Assembly (NCBI RefSeq): GCF_000172155.1
Contig: NZ_ABIZ01000001.1
Coordinates: forward strand, 2,139,105 to 2,203,104
Direction: 5' to 3'
Length of the DNA: 64,000 nucleotides
From: Verrucomicrobium spinosum DSM 4136 = JCM 18804
GTDB taxonomy: Bacteria; Verrucomicrobiota; Verrucomicrobiia; Verrucomicrobiales; Verrucomicrobiaceae
Of the stretch, positions 8,616 through 60,125 are shown in pieces (positions within the stretch are counted from its first letter, which is position 1; each line of letters starts with the position of its first letter). A model generated the notes under the pieces. That model did no database searches. It saw only the letters and a program-made list of their open reading frames with translations, and was not told where the DNA came from. A program made the translations under genes and the position numbers.

Positions 8616-8742
8616 GTAGTCCGATGGTCCCCATCGGCTCAGTCGCTGCGGGGATGTACAATCAAATGCCGAAGGACGGCAGTGGACCTTATGGTGTTGG
8701 CCTATGCCATCCCTTCGCTCCCCAACCGACGGGGACCGTCGG
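8616..8742. repeat. REPIN-like inverted doublet (GTAG + 7-bp-stem/3-nt-loop hairpins)
   Basis: gtGTAGtCCGATGGtccCCATCGGctcag (8616-8642) and CCGACGGggaCCGTCGGactac (8726-8747) are reverse complements of each other. Located in the 3' UTR of the protease gene. Confidence 0.45.
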
Positions 8743-8743
8743 A

Positions 8744-10963
8744 CTACAACGACTGATACAACGCATCAATGCGCTGCAGATCCAGTCCTGCGGGTGCGGT
8801 TTCGAGCAGTCGTTTCAGGTCCTCTTTGGCTCCGGGGCTGTCGCCGGTCTTCATGCGGGTGAAGGCGCGGTTCAAACGTTCGCCGGGTGAATCGGGCTCC
8901 AGGGCGAGGATCAGATCCAGATAGGGCAGGGACAGCTCCGGTTTCTTGGCGAAACTGGTCAGGTTGTAGAGCAGTCGCAAAATCATGGCCCTCGGCGTGG
9001 CAGGCTCCCGCTGGGCTTCGCTGACCACCTGCCCTGTGGTCTGGATGATGAACCGCTCGGCTTCGGAAGGTTGGAGGAATTTACCCCCGTCAAACACGTC
9101 GATGTAGGTCACCACCTTCTCGCCGCCAAACTGCTCGCGGTAGGCGACCATGAAACGTCCCGGGAGGGAGACGCCATAGACATCCGTGAGGCCAAGCTGA
9201 CGGGAAAGTTCGAGGAATACAATGGACAGTGTGATGGGGATTCCTTCGCGGTCATCCAGCACCTGGTTGAGGTAGCTGTTGGAGAGGTCGTCGATGGCAT
9301 CGCTGCGGGACCCGTGAAAACCGTTTTCCTTGAAGAGGTATTGCGCGAGCCGGGCCGCGGCCTTGGAGGTGGAGCCGGAGGTGATCTCGGGATCCTTCTT
9401 CAGCTCATTGGCCATGCGCTCCACGGCACGCAAGTAGGCATCGGTGTCCAGCTCGGCGTTGTCATGTCGCGCGACCAGCAGGGCGGCTCGCATCAGCTCG
9501 GTCTGGTCAGCGGGGCGTTGCAGCACTTTCACCAGTTCCTCCGCGGTGTTGCGGCGATGCACCTCCCGCCCGAGCTTGCGCAGCGTGGCGGCCTGCTCCT
9601 CCAAGGTCTTGGCGCGCTGCTCCAGCAGACTGCGGGAAGCGGCAGGCTCGGCCAGGAGCTTTTCCATCGTCTTGTCCTTGGGCCCCTTGTGCGCGAGGTA
9701 GTCGGTGAGTTCAGCGTTGAGCTGCAAGGCGAGCTGGTCAGAGATCTGGTTGTGTGAGACCTTTTCCCCGACCTGGAAATGTTTGAAGCAGGCCTTCGTC
9801 TGGCGGAACTTGCAGAGGCCCACCCGGCCGCCACGCAGTCCGGTGTCCTGCTGCTCCGTCACCAGGGTGTCATTCACGAAGCACTGGATCTTGTTCTCAT
9901 CCACCCGCACCCGGAGCGTGTTCCAGTCCCCGGAACGGTAGGCAGGGCTGGCGGCATCGCTGAGGATGGACCACGAGAAGACATCGGGTCCATTGAACCT
10001 GGTGAGGCGCAGTTTTCCAGCGCTGGGGTAGAAGCCGTAGTGCACATCTTTGCCGTCTGCGCAGAAACTCAGTCCTGCTGCTCCGCTCTCTTCATCCAGC
10101 TTTACGGTGACGCTGGCTTCAAACGGCGTGGCAGGCGGATTTTCTTTGCTGAGGCACAGTGAGCGGCCCCCAAAACCTTCACCGGATCCGTCCACCTGGA
10201 TGACTCCTGCGTGCTGGGTCCAGCTGGCTCCTTGCAGTGGTTCCCAGAGCCGGTCGTCCAGGCGGCCGATGGTGAGCCAGCGCTGCATGGGGATGGGGTT
10301 GGGCTTTTCCAGAAGGAGCCGCAGGTCATTCACCGAGTGGGCAAAGCCCAGATTGTTCGTGACGGCGCTCTTGAGCGTGATCACGCCCTGTACTTCGCCC
10401 TTGAGGTTGAGCAGGGGCCCGCCGCTGTTGCCCTCTTCGATCGGGATGGCGATCTGGATCATGTTGGACCCTTCCACCTCCCGGAGGGCAGAGATCACGC
10501 CCTCCACCACGCTGAATTCCAGTCCTTGGGGATTGCCCAGAGCGACCACAGGTTGGCCCTGTTTGATCGAGTCGGAGTCGCCCAAGGGCAGCGCGGTGAG
10601 GTCTTTCTTGCCGATGCGGATGATGGCGAGGTCTAGGGTGGGGTCGGTGGCATGCACCTCCGTGACCTCGTGCATGGAGCCATCGGAGAGCTGTACCTTG
10701 ATGCGGCGGGCGTTCCCGATGACGTGCAGATTCGTGGCGATGAGGCCATCCGTACTGATGATGAACCCGGTGCCCAGCGCCTCCTGACTGCCTCCGCGGC
10801 CGATCTGGGTGACTGTGACCAACGAGGGGCGAGCCGCCACGGTGAGCTCCTCCACGGAGTGGGCGTGCGTGCCTGCGGCCGAGTCGGCCTTGGGCTTGGG
10901 TTTGGCCAAAACCAGGCCGCTGCCGAGGGCCAGCCACAGCGCAGTGAAAAGCAACGGGCGCAT
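8744..10963 (-). CDS. Secreted multidomain protein: trypsin-like S1C serine protease + DUF1080/laminin-G-like domain + coiled coil + transglutaminase-like (SirB1/Transglut_core2) domain
   Basis: Start reassigned to the ATG at 10963 (MRPLLFTALWLALGSGLVLA signal peptide). Protease block LGTGFIISTDGLIATNLHVI…DLAIIRI…GNSGGPLLN contains the His/Asp/Ser triad motifs. GDWNTLRVRVDENKIQCFVNDTLV…GRVGLCKFRQTKACFKHFQV is DUF1080-like. SIVFLELSRQLGLTDVYGVSLPGRFMVAYRE is SirB1-like. Confidence 0.7.
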   Translation of the reverse strand: MRPLLFTALWLALGSGLVLAKPKPKADSAAGTHAHSVEELTVAARPSLVTVTQIGRGGSQEALGTGFIISTDGLIATNLHVIGNARRIKVQLSDGSMHEVTEVHATDPTLDLAIIRIGKKDLTALPLGDSDSIKQGQPVVALGNPQGLEFSVVEGVISALREVEGSNMIQIAIPIEEGNSGGPLLNLKGEVQGVITLKSAVTNNLGFAHSVNDLRLLLEKPNPIPMQRWLTIGRLDDRLWEPLQGASWTQHAGVIQVDGSGEGFGGRSLCLSKENPPATPFEASVTVKLDEESGAAGLSFCADGKDVHYGFYPSAGKLRLTRFNGPDVFSWSILSDAASPAYRSGDWNTLRVRVDENKIQCFVNDTLVTEQQDTGLRGGRVGLCKFRQTKACFKHFQVGEKVSHNQISDQLALQLNAELTDYLAHKGPKDKTMEKLLAEPAASRSLLEQRAKTLEEQAATLRKLGREVHRRNTAEELVKVLQRPADQTELMRAALLVARHDNAELDTDAYLRAVERMANELKKDPEITSGSTSKAAARLAQYLFKENGFHGSRSDAIDDLSNSYLNQVLDDREGIPITLSIVFLELSRQLGLTDVYGVSLPGRFMVAYREQFGGEKVVTYIDVFDGGKFLQPSEAERFIIQTTGQVVSEAQREPATPRAMILRLLYNLTSFAKKPELSLPYLDLILALEPDSPGERLNRAFTRMKTGDSPGAKEDLKRLLETAPAGLDLQRIDALYQSL

Positions 10964-11679: not shown

Positions 11680-11789
11680 GTCAGTGCGTCAGTGCGTCAG
11701 TGCGTCAGTGCGTCAGTGCGTCAGTGCGTCAGTGCGTCAGTGCGTCAGTGCGTCAGTGCGTCAGTGCGTCAGTGCGTCAGTGCGTCAGT
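11680..11789. repeat. Octamer microsatellite (GTCAGTGC)x13.6
   Basis: 13 perfect tandem units read directly from the sequence. Followed by gtttttgggttcgaggtaa, the same right flank as the locus at 29045. Confidence 0.95.
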
Positions 11790-29044: not shown

Positions 29045-29107
29045 GTCAGTGCGTCAGTGCGTCAGTGCGTCAGTGCGTCAGTGCGTCAGTGCGTCAGTGC
29101 GTCAGTT
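29045..29107. repeat. Octamer microsatellite (GTCAGTGC)x7.8, starting at the base after the TAG stop
   Basis: Direct reading. Same unit and same right flank (gtt.gggttcgaggtaa) as the locus at 11680. Confidence 0.95.
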
Positions 29108-30292: not shown

Positions 30293-30420
30293 GGTGCGTT
30301 GGTGCGTTGGTGCGTTGGTGCGTTGGTGCGTTGGTGCGTTGGTGCGTTGGTGCGTTGGTGCGTTGGTGCGTTGGTGCGTTGGTGCGTTGGTGCGTTGGTG
30401 CGTTGGTGCGTTGGTGCGTT
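30293..30420. repeat. Octamer microsatellite (GGTGCGTT)x16, starting 2 bp after the folD stop
   Basis: 16 perfect units read directly. Confidence 0.95.
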
Positions 30421-30439
30421 GATTTGCGTGTTATCTCAT

Positions 30440-32899: not shown

Positions 32900-33608
32900 A
32901 AAATGCAGGGTAATGAGGTGCGAGGGGAATCTTGGATGACGATATGAGTGGTAGTTTCCTGGTGTCCCGTTTGCAGACGAGAGAGCGAGGCGTGGGCCTT
33001 GGGCGCACGTATTCCCTGTGCCGTTGACCCGGAGGCGGACCTCCGGCGGAGACACCAGATGGAATTGGGGGCGTATTACCGCGAACCGTGTCGCGGTGGC
33101 ACGGGAAGATTCAGAACCTGAACCCTAGGGCGCGATGGGGCGCAGGAAGGGCTGGTGGGATGACGGACTGCCGTGCAGCCGTCGGTGAATGGCGTGGCGC
33201 CGGTGCGTTGAGCAGTTGGCGCTGGCTGGGTATTTCATGTTCTCGTTGACCTTGCCGAACGAGACGGTCACCCGCCACGTGCAGCATGTTGCTGTTGGGG
33301 AGACCATGAAGCCTGCGAAGCAGACCCCAGAGAGATCGTCCCTCCCAAAATTGCCTGCGAGGTTAGCTGACGGGCTGGACCTTGGAAGTGGTCCCTGCAA
33401 GCGGTTGCCCGCTTCGTTCGCCCCGTCCTGATTCTCTTGCGAAAACCAGGAGTTCGGTTCCCCCGCGCCACTACTGAGGAAGCAGTAATGACTTCGGCTG
33501 ACAGTGGGATGTTATTCCATGGACCTTTTTTGTCAAATGGAACCGGTGACACCCCGGGCGGACCCTGCGCAAGTCCTTGTGATTCATGCTTGAAGTTGCG
33601 GGCGTTCG

Positions 33609-45884: not shown

Positions 45885-46550
45885 GTGGGGAAGAGCCGTC
45901 CCGGCTCTTGGGGGAGCTGGGTGGTGCGTGGACAAGAACCGAGACGGTTCTTCTACCATGGCGGTTGCCCGCGAGAGAGAAGGTAGAGGAGCCGTCCCGG
46001 CTCTTGGGTGCGCTGGATGGTGCGGGGACAAGAACCGGGACGGTTCTTCTACCCTGGCTGATGTCCGCGAGAGGGAATGTGGAAGAGCCGTCCCGGCTCT
46101 TGGGTGCGCTGGGTGACGCGTGGACAAGAACCGGGACGGTTCTTCTACCGTGGCGGTTGCCCGCGAGAGAGAAGGTAGAAGAGCCGTCCCGGCTCTTGGG
46201 TGCGCTGGATGGTGCGTGGACAAGAACCGGGACGGTTCTTCTACCGTGGCGGTTGCCTGCGAGAGAGAAGGTAGAGGAGCCGTCCCGGCTCTTGGGTGCG
46301 CTGGATGGTGCGGGGACAAGAACCGAGACGGTTCTTCTACCGTGGCGGTTGCCTGCGAGAGAGAATGTAGAAGAGCCGTCCCGGCTCTTGGGTGCGCTGG
46401 GTGACGCGTGGACAAGAACCGGGACGGTTCTTCTACCGTGGCGGTTGCCCGAGAGAGAGAATGTAGAAGAGCCGTCCCGGCTCTTGGGTGCGCTGGGTGA
46501 CGCGTGGACAAGAACCGGGACGGTTCTTCTACTATGGCGGATTTCCGCAC
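45885..46550. repeat. REPIN array: 7 tandem 96-bp units, each GTAG + AGAGCCG-TCC-CGGCTCT hairpin, 26-nt spacer and inverted AGAACCG-GGA-CGGTTCT hairpin
   Basis: Unit starts at 45890, 45986, 46082, 46178, 46274, 46370 and 46466 (exact 96-bp period). Fills the whole DUF1501-RAYT intergenic space. Confidence 0.9.
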
Positions 46551-46573
46551 GTAGCTTAGAGCTGTGAGGATAT

Positions 46574-47302
46574 TCAAGTGTTGGTTCCTTCGCTCAACTG
46601 CCTATTGCTCCCCACATATTCTGGATGTTCGCGAATGTAGTTCCGGATTCGCTCCAGACTGGCGCGGCTGCGCACGATGTGGTCGAAAGACTCGCGTTGC
46701 CATACCCTGCGATTCGGAAAATGAGATCGCAGCCCAGGCAGATGATCATCGATGATTTTGTTGAGTCGATGCGCTGAGTAGGACTTCCAAGAATGCAGAA
46801 TCTTGGAGAGATCATGTTCGGGATTTGGCGTCAAGATGGCGTGGACATGGTTTGACGCTACGACGTACTCGTCCAACTCGTAGCGAGCTCCAGCAAAATG
46901 ACGGATGGTTTGGGATGCGGAGTCCTTTGCGGGTTGATGGCTTAAAAGGCATGAACCACTGTTTGCATCCAACCAGCGCTGGAGACGCCTGGGAAATCGA
47001 TCATAGTACTCCTGACGGGTTAGCTTGTCATGAGGTTCGGGATGGCGCTTGAGCCAGTCTTCTCGATCCAGATGCCATTGATGTAGCTTGTCTTGAGGCA
47101 AAGCATCAGCCAGTCGAAAGGTGATGAAATAGGTCGTCGAGGCCTGCCTCCAATGTGGAAGATTCCCCGAAAGCACTTCTGTCGGAACGAGCTCTGAGTA
47201 GTAGACCCGGCTCTCATCTGGATTGGGAACGGGTTTATCCGGGGAATCCATGCGAAAACGAAGTGGCAGGTGTGCGGTAAAAGCCTGCCCATGTTGCGCC
47301 AT
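46574..47302 (-). CDS. REP-associated tyrosine transposase (RAYT; IS200-like HuH Y1 family)
   Basis: YYSELVPTEV… leads into the N-terminal TnpA_REP-like segment. HuH motif VVASNHVHAIL. WQRESFDHIVRS Tyr region. 242 aa, typical RAYT size. Flanked on both sides by REPIN arrays. Confidence 0.8.
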   Translation of the reverse strand: MAQHGQAFTAHLPLRFRMDSPDKPVPNPDESRVYYSELVPTEVLSGNLPHWRQASTTYFITFRLADALPQDKLHQWHLDREDWLKRHPEPHDKLTRQEYYDRFPRRLQRWLDANSGSCLLSHQPAKDSASQTIRHFAGARYELDEYVVASNHVHAILTPNPEHDLSKILHSWKSYSAHRLNKIIDDHLPGLRSHFPNRRVWQRESFDHIVRSRASLERIRNYIREHPEYVGSNRQLSEGTNT

Positions 47303-47319
47303 GGTTTGGTTGGGCGCAA

Positions 47320-47575
47320 CCGACTCTTGGGAGTGCTGAGCCGTGCGGGGGCAAGAACCGGGACGGTTCTTCTACCCTGGCTGATGTCCGCGAGGGGGAA
47401 AGTGGAAGAGCCGTCTCGGCTCTTGATGGCGCTGAGCCGTGCGGGGGCAAGAACCGGGACGGTTCTTCTACCCTGGCTGATGTCCGCGAGGGGGGAAAGT
47501 GGAAGAGCCGTCTCGGCTCTTGATGGCGCTGGGCCGTGCGGGGCCAAGAACCGGGACGGTTCTTCTACTGTCCGG
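47320..47575. repeat. REPIN array (2.5 units of the same 96/97-bp unit) on the other side of the RAYT gene
   Basis: caagaaccgggacggttcttctaccctggctgatgtccgcgagggggaaagtggaagagccgtctcggctcttgatggcgctg repeats at 47352, 47448 and 47545. Confidence 0.85.
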
Positions 47576-57125: not shown

Positions 57126-57146
57126 GTGGGGGGGGCGGGAGCGGGA

Positions 57147-57226
57147 GTGATGGAGTGATGGAGTGATGGAGTGATGGAGTGATGGAGTGATGGAGTGATG
57201 GAGTGATGGAGTGATGGAGTGATGGA
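57147..57226. repeat. Octamer microsatellite (GTGATGGA)x10, 22 bp after the GNAT stop
   Basis: 10 perfect units read directly. Confidence 0.95.
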
Positions 57227-57356
57227 GTGGGCTTCTGGGAAGCTTGGGGAGCGCACGCATCTTGCGTGCTGTTCTCGGCATCTTGCCGGGAACGTCAGTC
57301 AGGGCGTTGTCGCGAAATGCACGTCCATATGGGAATGTGTCGTCGCTGCTGGAAAT

Positions 57357-57385
57357 GGTAGAAGAGCCGTCCCGGCTCTTGGCTT
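57357..57385. repeat. Solo REP (same family as the RAYT-flanking arrays)
   Basis: gGTAGAAGAGCCGTCCCGGCTCTTGG is identical to the array consensus, including GTAG. Confidence 0.65.
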
Positions 57386-59421: not shown

Positions 59422-59429
59422 GGGGGAAG

Positions 59430-59503
59430 GAATTAGAAATTAGAAATTAGAAATTAGGAATGATGAATTAGGAATGATGAATTAGGAATGATGAATTAGG
59501 AAT
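59430..59503. repeat. Compound microsatellite (GAAATTA)x4 + (GAATGATGAATTAG)x3, 9 bp after the SDR stop
   Basis: Direct reading. Confidence 0.9.
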
Positions 59504-59508
59504 GGGGG

Positions 59509-60125
59509 CACGAGCTTCAAGCTCCCTCCTGGTGCGGCCTTGCTCGTGACTCGTGGCTGCGTTTGTCAAAACGCGGTCAGAGGCGTTGCTTGCACCTCAA
59601 GGCAGCAAGCCATCCTTTACGGTCGCCTGCACCCACGCATTCTTACGAATGCGTCCACGAGCTTCAAGCTCCCTCCTGGTGCGGCCCTGTTCGTGACTCG
59701 TGGCTGCGTTTGTTAAAACGCGGTCAGCGGCGTTTCTTGGACCTTAGGGAAGCAAGCCATCCGTTACCGTCGCCCGCACCCACGCATTCTTACGAATGCA
59801 TCCACGAGCATCGAGTTGCCTCGTGGTGCGGCCCTGTTCGTGACTCGTGGCTGCGTTTGTTAAAACGCGGTCAGCGGCGTTTCTTGGACCTTAGGGAAGC
59901 AAGCCATCCGTTACCGTCGCCCGCACCCACGCATTCTTACGAATGCATCCACGAGCATCGAGTTGCCTCGTGGTGCGGCCCTGTTCGTGACTCGTGGCTG
60001 CGTTTGTCAAAACGCGGTCAGAGGCGTCGCTTGCACCTCAAGGCAGCAAGCCATCCCGCATGGTCGCCCGCACCTACGCATTCTTACGAATGCGTCCACG
60101 AGCTTCGAGTTCGCCCTCGTGATCG
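59509..60125. repeat. Tandem array of a 147-bp hairpin-rich unit, 4.2 copies, in an A-B-B-A variant order
   Basis: Unit starts (cacgagc…) at 59509, 59656, 59803, 59950 and 60097. Each unit carries CACGAGC…GCTCGTG, GCGTTTG-TYAA-AACGC and CGCATTC-TTAC-GAATGCG palindromes. Units 2 and 3 are identical. Confidence 0.9.

Follow-up and report, generated by a model that had tools for sequence, protein, structure and literature searches.

A probable REPtron in Verrucomicrobium spinosum: a RAYT gene embedded in phased arrays of GTAG-tagged hairpin repeats

We analyzed a stretch of 64,000 nt of Verrucomicrobium spinosum DSM 4136 (hereafter the window, from whose start all coordinates are counted) that contains a gene for a REP-associated tyrosine transposase (RAYT). 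This gene is flanked on both sides by arrays of repetitive extragenic palindromes (REPs), which are short hairpins preceded by a GTAG tag. Within the arrays, the REPs form inverted doublets (REPINs), and two REP types, referred to as G-type and A-type, alternate in orientation. The 3' array sits between convergent genes and starts right after the stop codon of a DUF1501 gene. We consider it very probable that this locus is a REPtron, i.e., a RAYT gene embedded in arrays of its cognate hairpin repeats. The features of the locus are the following:

46574-47302, minus strand: RAYT gene (TnpA_REP-type HUH/Y1), longest open reading frame (ORF) of 242 amino acids (aa)
45887-46558: 3'-flank array, 7 units of exactly 96 bp
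Starts at 45887, 45983, 46079, 46175, 46271, 46367 and 46463, plus strand: G-type REPs of the 3' array, 23 nt each
Starts at 45934, 46030, 46126, 46222, 46318, 46414 and 46510, minus strand: A-type REPs of the 3' array, 23 nt each
47353-47568: 5'-flank array, 2.5 units (5 REPs) spaced 96/97 bp apart, in the polarity of the 3' array
Starts at 47353, 47449 and 47546, minus strand: A-type REPs of the 5' array
Starts at 47402 and 47499, plus strand: G-type REPs of the 5' array, with GTGG tag and TCT loop
46175-46244: representative REPIN, a 70-nt inverted doublet of a G-type and an A-type REP with GTAG tags outward
47320-47331: truncated G-type REP, reduced to its 3' arm (CCGACTCTTGGG) as read from the sequence; the upstream RAYT ATG is about 18 nt away
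46551-46565, plus strand: possible relic of the 5' half of a G-type REP (GTAGCTTAGAGCTGT), read with low confidence, 9 nt from the RAYT stop codon

Searching the window for GTAGAAGARCCGTCCCGGYTCTT with up to 3 mismatches, we found 20 matches (14 on the 3' side of the RAYT gene, 5 on its 5' side and 1 solo copy), and none in 100 shuffled sequences that preserved dinucleotide composition. All REP copies of the window fall between ORFs that are long or supported by Pfam. Each REP is 23 nt long and consists of a GT[AG]G tag and a perfect 8-bp stem with a TCC or TCT loop (as a search string, GTAGAAGARCCGTCYCGGYTCTT with up to 2 mismatches). The two types differ by a G-C versus an A-T pair at stem position 5: every copy on the plus strand presents the G-type stem AAGAGCCG/CGGCTCTT and every copy on the minus strand the A-type stem AAGAACCG/CGGTTCTT, and this holds on both sides of the RAYT gene. 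The 96-bp unit is composed, in order, of a G-type REP on the plus strand, a 24-nt spacer, an A-type REP on the minus strand and a 26-nt linker. Tandem Repeats Finder delimited the 3' array to 45890-46540 (period 96, 6.8 copies, 92% matches, no indels) and the 5' array to 47335-47568 (period 97, 2.4 copies). The seven units of exact 96-bp period that the original prediction had described in the 3' flank are therefore recovered both by this program and by the spacing of the REPs. Its count of 2.5 units in the 5' flank also stands but not the uniform 96-bp phasing, since the spacing is 96 and then 97 bp. Likewise, two stems in inverted orientation are found in each unit as it had claimed, but the GTAG tag is not found throughout, as several G-type copies bear GTGG or GGGG instead.

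When folded as single-stranded DNA, the 70-nt REPIN forms a single long hairpin on the plus strand (-25.7 kcal/mol, z -8.1) as well as on the minus strand (-24.7 kcal/mol, z -9.1), and owing to the difference between the two stems, a G-T pair arises on one strand, where the opposite strand has an A-C mismatch. Across units 1-6 of the 3' array, variable positions amount to 1 of 32 in the stems, 1 of 6 in the loops, 6 of 24 in the spacers and 8 of 26 in the linkers. This pattern bears on the possibility that the 96-bp repeat, which corresponds to 32 codons, encodes a repeat protein with the repeat peptide VEEPSRLLGALG... The period is a multiple of three, both strands are open over the array (ORFs of 238 aa on the plus strand and 267 aa on the minus strand), and an annotated protein of V. 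spinosum (P0121) is made of the same peptides. However, the variation is not concentrated at third codon positions (3, 8 and 7 variable sites at the first, second and third position) and spares the hairpin stems. Moreover, the period of the 5' array is 97, single copies of these units are found in intergenic DNA, and among 5.8 billion proteins searched with the array-spanning ORF as query, P0121 alone was retrieved. We regard a coding function of the repeat as extremely improbable, and the distribution of the variable sites indicates that the ORFs crossing the array are by-products of a period divisible by three and not genes.

The RAYT ORF matches, with 100% identity, a V. spinosum protein annotated as a 225-aa "transposase", whose start is the second ATG (47251). 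Because the upstream ATG (47302) is in frame and conserved in an ortholog with 77% identity, it is possible that the true start of the gene is the upstream ATG. The 17 codons located 5' of the annotated start (47252-47302, minus strand) encode MAQHGQAFTAHLPLRFR, and their counterpart in the ortholog is MAQHTQTAPSHYPSHLR. The protein matches the Pfam family Y1_Tnp with 42.7 bits (cut-off of 23) over residues 139-225. Of the two relevant NCBIfam models, the RAYT model (REP_Tyr_transpos) scores higher than transpos_IS200, which reaches 37.2 bits for a cut-off of 55. The alignment to the family models covers only residues 134-227. An AlphaFold model of the protein (pLDDT 83, pTM 0.74) predicts three additional helices (about residues 66-120) that follow the first strand and precede the first core helix, and this N-terminal insertion would explain the lack of alignment to the family models before residue 134. 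The 30 best matches of this model in the PDB, as determined with Foldseek, are all TnpA proteins of IS200/IS605 elements or the E. coli TnpA_REP structure 4ER8 (E values of 5e-5 to 3e-3), and the best ones include IS608, ISDra2 and Sulfolobus TnpA.

Residue conservation was assessed on an alignment of 32 homologs with 44-77% identity. The HUH motif corresponds to N151-H152-V153-H154, in which H152 and H154 are invariant. W201, D207, H208 and R211 of the GTAG-recognition motif are also invariant and Q202 is nearly so. The catalytic tyrosine is Y222, which is invariant, stands in the sequence YIREHP and lies on a predicted helix (213-224). A single-sequence phmmer search of the PDB with the RAYT protein gave no matches and a profile of homologs was needed: the profile of the 32 homologs matched ISDra2 TnpA (2XM3) and E. 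coli TnpA_REP (4ER8), both with E = 0.0045. It aligns NHVH with PEHMH of 4ER8 and PDHVH of 2XM3, and the YIRxNP motif with Y222 on the tyrosine of YIYINP (4ER8) and of YIESQH (2XM3). The HUH and tyrosine residues are thus present on profile alignment. Together with a Y1_Tnp score above cut-off, the predicted fold and the flanking REP doublets, they agree with the original identification of the 242-aa ORF (46574-47302, minus strand) as a RAYT. The same prediction had placed the Y1 region at WQRESFDHIVRS, which was mistaken: this segment is without tyrosine and represents the GTAG-recognition motif, with the same residue spacing as W94, Q95, E100, H101 and R104 of E. coli TnpA_REP.

The closest ortholog that we identified (locus L121, 77% aa identity) is collinear with the window across both flanks. 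Upstream of the gene, it presents an A-type REP and the same truncated G-type junction, AAGAG[T/C]CGGTTGC. Downstream, it presents a REPIN array with a related linker. The two genes show a dN/dS of 0.12 and a dS of about 1.05, and the RAYT gene is, as judged from these coding sequences, under purifying selection. Because an ortholog at a dS of about 1 retains the same junctions, the RAYT gene has apparently not moved. This result is relevant to another interpretation, in which the gene would be the transposase of an autonomous insertion sequence (IS) of the IS200/IS605 type and the hairpins its left and right ends. The Pfam family is named "Transposase IS200 like", the best structural matches include several transposases of such elements as mentioned above, and the ends of IS200/IS605 elements bear subterminal hairpins with a 5' guide tetranucleotide (PMC8266576). 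In contrast, the WQ..DH..R motif is of the RAYT type (PMC6006769), and many loci have these hairpins, as singles and as doublets, but not the gene. In addition, the two flanks consist of the same two REP types with the same polarity and do not represent distinct left and right ends, and no tnpB was found near the RAYT gene, of which the window has one copy, among the ORFs of the window. With no distinct ends, no tnpB and junctions conserved at a dS of about 1, we rejected the autonomous element as very improbable.

We then considered 80 metagenomic loci encoding proteins 38-57% identical to the RAYT. Perfect hairpins with a GTAG tag and a 7-8-bp stem were found within 400 bp of the gene in 48 of them, and the density of GTAG hairpins was 1.22/kb near the gene versus 0.16/kb further off. 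The usual layout consists of one (+)(-) doublet on each side of the gene. These loci have in common the tag, a stem length of 8 bp and the TCY loop, while the stem sequences change from locus to locus. Many called RAYT homologs (P0005, P0008, P0014, P0020, P0032, P0036, P0042, P0075 and others) bear REP-encoded peptides (SGSGVPPL, VEAASRRL, RRDAAAT and QSRDGSAT) within N-terminal extensions as well as in the loop that precedes the WQ motif, which suggests that REPs often lie inside or overlap the RAYT ORF. RAYT homologs were also observed in frame within genes of type I restriction R subunits (hsdR). A single open frame (L061:1-3120, minus strand) leads from the HsdR helicase core into EcoEI_R_C, which is interrupted by a REP-encoded peptide, the RAYT and a second REP-encoded peptide before it resumes, and the RAYT of this frame itself has two in-frame REPs. 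P0049 and P0050 present Pfam Y1_Tnp followed by positions 63-160 of EcoEI_R_C, and five further top matches carry the JGI name "type I restriction enzyme R subunit".

Beyond the RAYT locus, the window contains one further copy of this REP and one doublet of a second REP family, both of which had been predicted originally (the former at about 57357) and were found:

57358-57380, plus strand: solo G-type REP, perfect 23-mer, intergenic between a GNAT acetyltransferase gene and a DUF4142 gene
8616-8747: second-family REP doublet, GTAG-T-CCGAYGG-TCC-CCRTCGG, tags outward, between convergent genes

The two copies of the second family are GTAG-T-CCGATGG-TCC-CCATCGG (8616-8637, plus strand) and GTAG-T-CCGACGG-TCC-CCGTCGG (8726-8747, minus strand). 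We then scanned species-representative genomes in 8-kb blocks for the hairpin core AAGARCCGTCYCGGYTCTT, without requiring GTAG, and at least 120 blocks gave matches. For two congeners, Verrucomicrobium sp. BvORR106 and BvORR034, the returned blocks were re-scanned with the full 23-mer allowing up to 3 mismatches, so that the resulting counts are lower bounds. BvORR106 presented at least 69 REPs in at least 34 blocks. Among the matches listed, these comprised 25 singles, 16 doublets and arrays of 4 and 8 REPs, and 58 of the 69 REPs listed were GTAG-tagged. BvORR034 presented at least 39 REPs in at least 18 blocks (11 singles, 8 doublets, two clusters of 3 and one of 6 among the matches listed), with a GTAG tag for 28 of the 39 REPs listed. 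GTAG precedes nearly all of the core matches listed although the search pattern did not demand it. The doublets of both congeners are G+A pairs with GTAG outward and about 45 bp from start to start, which indicates that the heterotypic REPIN is the unit and the main form of dispersal. In V. spinosum itself, the protein P0121 is a translated array of three REPINs that recur every 180 bp; this array lies outside the window and further REP copies thus exist in the genome. The scan also returned GTAG-AAGAGCCG-TCY-CGGCTCTT at 30 or more separate sites of a metagenome-assembled genome (MAG) of Kiritimatiellae (contigs JAFGHX01...), always of the G-type and each followed by a conserved CCTCCCCGGCGGCA tail. 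An identical GTAG-tagged core was found at 9 or more sites of assembly OW818681.1. The REP cores of these two assemblies may reflect shared ancestry, transfer or convergence.

The linkers are alike within one array and unlike between arrays at other loci: arrays elsewhere in BvORR106 and BvORR034 have a period of 98 and another linker. The linker variant CCTGGCTGATGTCCGCGAG... is found in unit 2 of the 3' array, in the whole 5' array and in a BvORR106 array beside the ortholog of orf237 (L112). The number of units also differs between relatives, with 4 versus 3 units in the orthologous arrays L028 and L022, and 7 units beside the DUF1501 gene in the window versus 1.5 units in BvORR034 (L002). 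The conservation of linkers and the differences in unit number indicate that whole units were duplicated in place and not inserted independently. Growth of the arrays by tandem duplication of whole 96-bp units, as the original prediction had proposed from their phasing, is therefore supported.

It is somewhat unlikely that the arrays expand and contract solely through host processes that act on direct repeats (replication slippage or unequal homologous recombination), with no part of the RAYT in their growth, and that the REP hairpins are retained for host use, such as protection of mRNA 3' ends, termination between convergent genes or binding of nucleoid proteins. The duplication of whole 96-bp units together with their linkers is expected between direct repeats that are 92% identical, arrays with linkers of their own are found far from any RAYT in BvORR106 and BvORR034, and the 3' array has the position between convergent genes described above. 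However, the published models of unit addition by TnpA_REP also add whole units of bacterial interspersed mosaic elements (BIMEs), linker included (PMC3333891), so that conserved linkers do not separate RAYT-driven from host-driven growth. Moreover, the largest array of the window is the one around the RAYT gene, and the family-wide linkage of the gene and GTAG hairpins argues that the protein acts on the hairpins.

The REPtron interpretation, which we favor, would involve a single, vertically inherited gene for a HUH single-tyrosine nuclease/transposase of the TnpA_REP type and a non-autonomous element, the REPIN, made of two inverted 23-nt REPs with GTAG tags outward. By analogy with E. coli TnpA_REP, the protein would bind the folded, single-stranded REP hairpin and its WQ..DH..R motif would read the GTAG foot. 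Y222 would then cut and rejoin single-stranded DNA with a metal held by H152/H154, and cleavage is predicted, as in E. coli, at a CT in the CTTCTCTCTC linker on the minus strand. REPINs would thereby be excised, reinserted and amplified. They have spread as units to other intergenic sites, and the 96-bp unit (REPIN and linker) was then multiplied in tandem at a given site. We infer that the RAYT protein is catalytically active and mobilizes these REPs; the duplication of units may be catalyzed by the RAYT or result from host slippage or unequal recombination.

Several observations weigh against this interpretation. The score of REP_Tyr_transpos (57.3 bits) is below its equivalog cut-off of 80, and the profile matches to solved RAYT/IS200 structures are weak (E of about 0.005). 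In the window, 19 of the 20 REPs are located at the RAYT locus, such that only one copy lies outside it in 64 kb. Finally, BvORR034 has dispersed REPs and yet no RAYT at the syntenic site: the interval between its DUF1501 ortholog (96% aa identity) and its orf237 ortholog (L002:2287-4824) contains 1.5 REPIN units and a 625-aa ORF that resembles, by eye, the C-terminal domain of Lon protease. This suggests that the maintenance of REPs need not depend on the RAYT locus. On the orf237 side in BvORR106, the contig terminates with a REPIN array.

A more specific and rather doubtful scenario is that the flanking arrays are the two halves of a once-continuous REPIN array that now holds the RAYT gene, whose protein would belong to a large uncharacterized clade centered on Planctomycetes-Verrucomicrobia-Chlamydiae (PVC) bacteria. 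The continuity of the array is suggested by the shared polarity, the shared linker variants and the truncated G-type arm at the start codon, which is conserved in the ortholog. The RAYT gene may even have been inserted inside the loop of a REP, as read from the 12-nt arm on one side and the weak 15-nt relic on the other; only the arm is conserved in the ortholog, and for the relic GTAGCTTAGAGCTGT (46551-46565) only ACAGCTC is common to L121. If the array was once continuous, the locus would constitute a fossil of RAYT-catalyzed addition of units in place. If the clade is real, it would be characterized by a three-helix insertion of about 55 residues and a fixed REP grammar, GTAG-N8-TCY-N8', and its locus-specific stems could serve to read the specificity code between protein and DNA.

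We also searched the region for other types of elements. An Rfam scan found no family at gathering score. Below threshold, each 96-bp unit (45888-46563, minus strand) matched Atu_C10 (RF02497) over its full length with 23-33 bits, for a gathering score of 60, and matches on this strand of the units also included microRNA (miRNA) hairpin models. These matches to Atu_C10 and miRNA models probably reflect a generic similarity between long hairpins; Atu_C10 is a small RNA of Rhizobiales and may itself be REPIN-like. A scan for promoters and terminators yielded one weak match of each kind, which is at chance level. A CRISPR array was rejected because the sequences between the hairpins are themselves repeated and no cas-like ORFs were present nearby.

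Other repeats were observed in the window. Four tandem arrays of 8-bp units are perfect (100% match): GTCAGTGC at 11680-11789 (x13.8) and 29045-29106 (x7.8), GGTGCGTT at 30293-30421 (x16.1) and GGAGTGAT at 57144-57229 (x10.8). Their period of 8 is not a multiple of three, and the GGAGTGAT array starts 19 nt past the stop codon of the GNAT acetyltransferase gene. A 7/14/28-bp repeat at 59428-59504 is followed by a 147-bp tandem repeat (x4.2) at 59509-60121, which contains GTGG-ACGCATTC-GTAA-GAATGCGT hairpins at 59635 and 60076. Rfam further identified a c-di-AMP riboswitch of the ydaO/yuaA type at 33337-33509 on the minus strand (60.8 bits for a gathering score of 38).

The REPtron of E. coli K-12, in which tnpA_REP/yafM is flanked by REPs and BIMEs and whose protein structure is known (4ER8; Ton-Hoang 2012, PMC3333891), presents the same organization. 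Both systems share a HUH/Y1 protein with a WQ..(E/D)H..R GTAG-recognition motif and a tyrosine in YIxxNP, and GTAG-tagged hairpins on both sides of the gene. The arrays resemble E. coli BIME-2 arrays in that REPs of two types follow each other in alternating orientation and are joined by conserved linkers, and in both cases the RAYT is present or absent at the syntenic site among close relatives (PMC3333891). Unlike in E. coli, the V. spinosum REP has no bulge: its 8-bp stem is perfectly palindromic and bears a TCY loop of 3 nt. The V. spinosum protein is about 60 residues longer than E. coli TnpA_REP, with the predicted three-helix insertion, and has an Asp in place of Glu100. The similarity of the two proteins is weak (E of about 0.005, about 17% identity in structural alignment).

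A RAYT with GTAG REPs had been presented as notable for a PVC-type genome, but REPs and REPtrons of PVC bacteria were published in 2013: GTAG REPs and REPtrons are reported in Opitutus terrae (GTAG-17 to -20), Planctomyces and Rhodopirellula baltica (Di Nocera et al. 2013, PMC3733652). As in those genomes, the tag is GTAG and often GTGG, stems are in the range of 6-9 bp, and REPs form head-to-head dimers with conserved spacers, which are reiterated in tandem along with flanking DNA. Cognate REPs likewise flank the RAYT genes, several REP families coexist in a genome, and in-frame insertion of REPs in genes is also described, as seen here in the homolog loci. The V. spinosum array differs by its unusual regularity, with exactly 96 bp seven times. 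V. spinosum and its REP sequence had no match in the text or supplements of that study, and a full-text search of the literature retrieved no paper linking V. spinosum with REPs.

Among the subclasses of TnpA_REP proteins (Quentin et al. 2018, PMC6006769), subclass 2.7 is small and mainly cyanobacterial, with the motifs [ND]HVH, WQ and YI[LR][NQ]NP, a mean length of about 213 aa with a variable N-terminus, an E100 to D change and canonical GT[AG]G REP flanks. The Glu-to-Asp change in the GTAG-recognition motif is reported for subclasses 2.5 and 2.7. The consensus of the V. spinosum family (NHVH, WQ, YIRDNP) fits subclass 2.7, a membership judged by motifs alone. Alternatively, the protein may belong to subclass 2.4 (NH[IFV]H, WQ, YIxNNP), in which REPs are inserted in the gene. 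The locus also resembles the REPIN/RAYT systems of Pseudomonas, in which REPs disperse as inverted doublets (Bertels and Rainey 2011, PMC3116915; Bertels 2017, PMC5581495), purifying selection maintains the RAYT as a conserved, host-like gene and singlets have the appearance of decayed remnants. The V. spinosum RAYT belongs to a different clade, which Bertels' groups 1-5, derived from a Pseudomonas query, did not cover.

Every element of the locus therefore has a published counterpart: REPtrons, mobile REPIN doublets, BIME-like alternating arrays and several REP families per genome. Our results indicate that it is a clean but ordinary example, whose interest lies in the regularity of its arrays and in the family-wide hairpin grammar and not in any new principle. 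It adds a well-resolved REPtron to the known RAYT/REPIN systems and leaves the knowledge of their mechanism as before. The clade of homologs is abundant in PVC and other environmental bacteria, and its hairpin grammar is constant while the stem sequence varies between lineages, which makes it a convenient natural data set for the co-evolution of RAYTs and REPs. The phased arrays, with unit numbers that differ among relatives, constitute a simple substrate for testing models of unit amplification.

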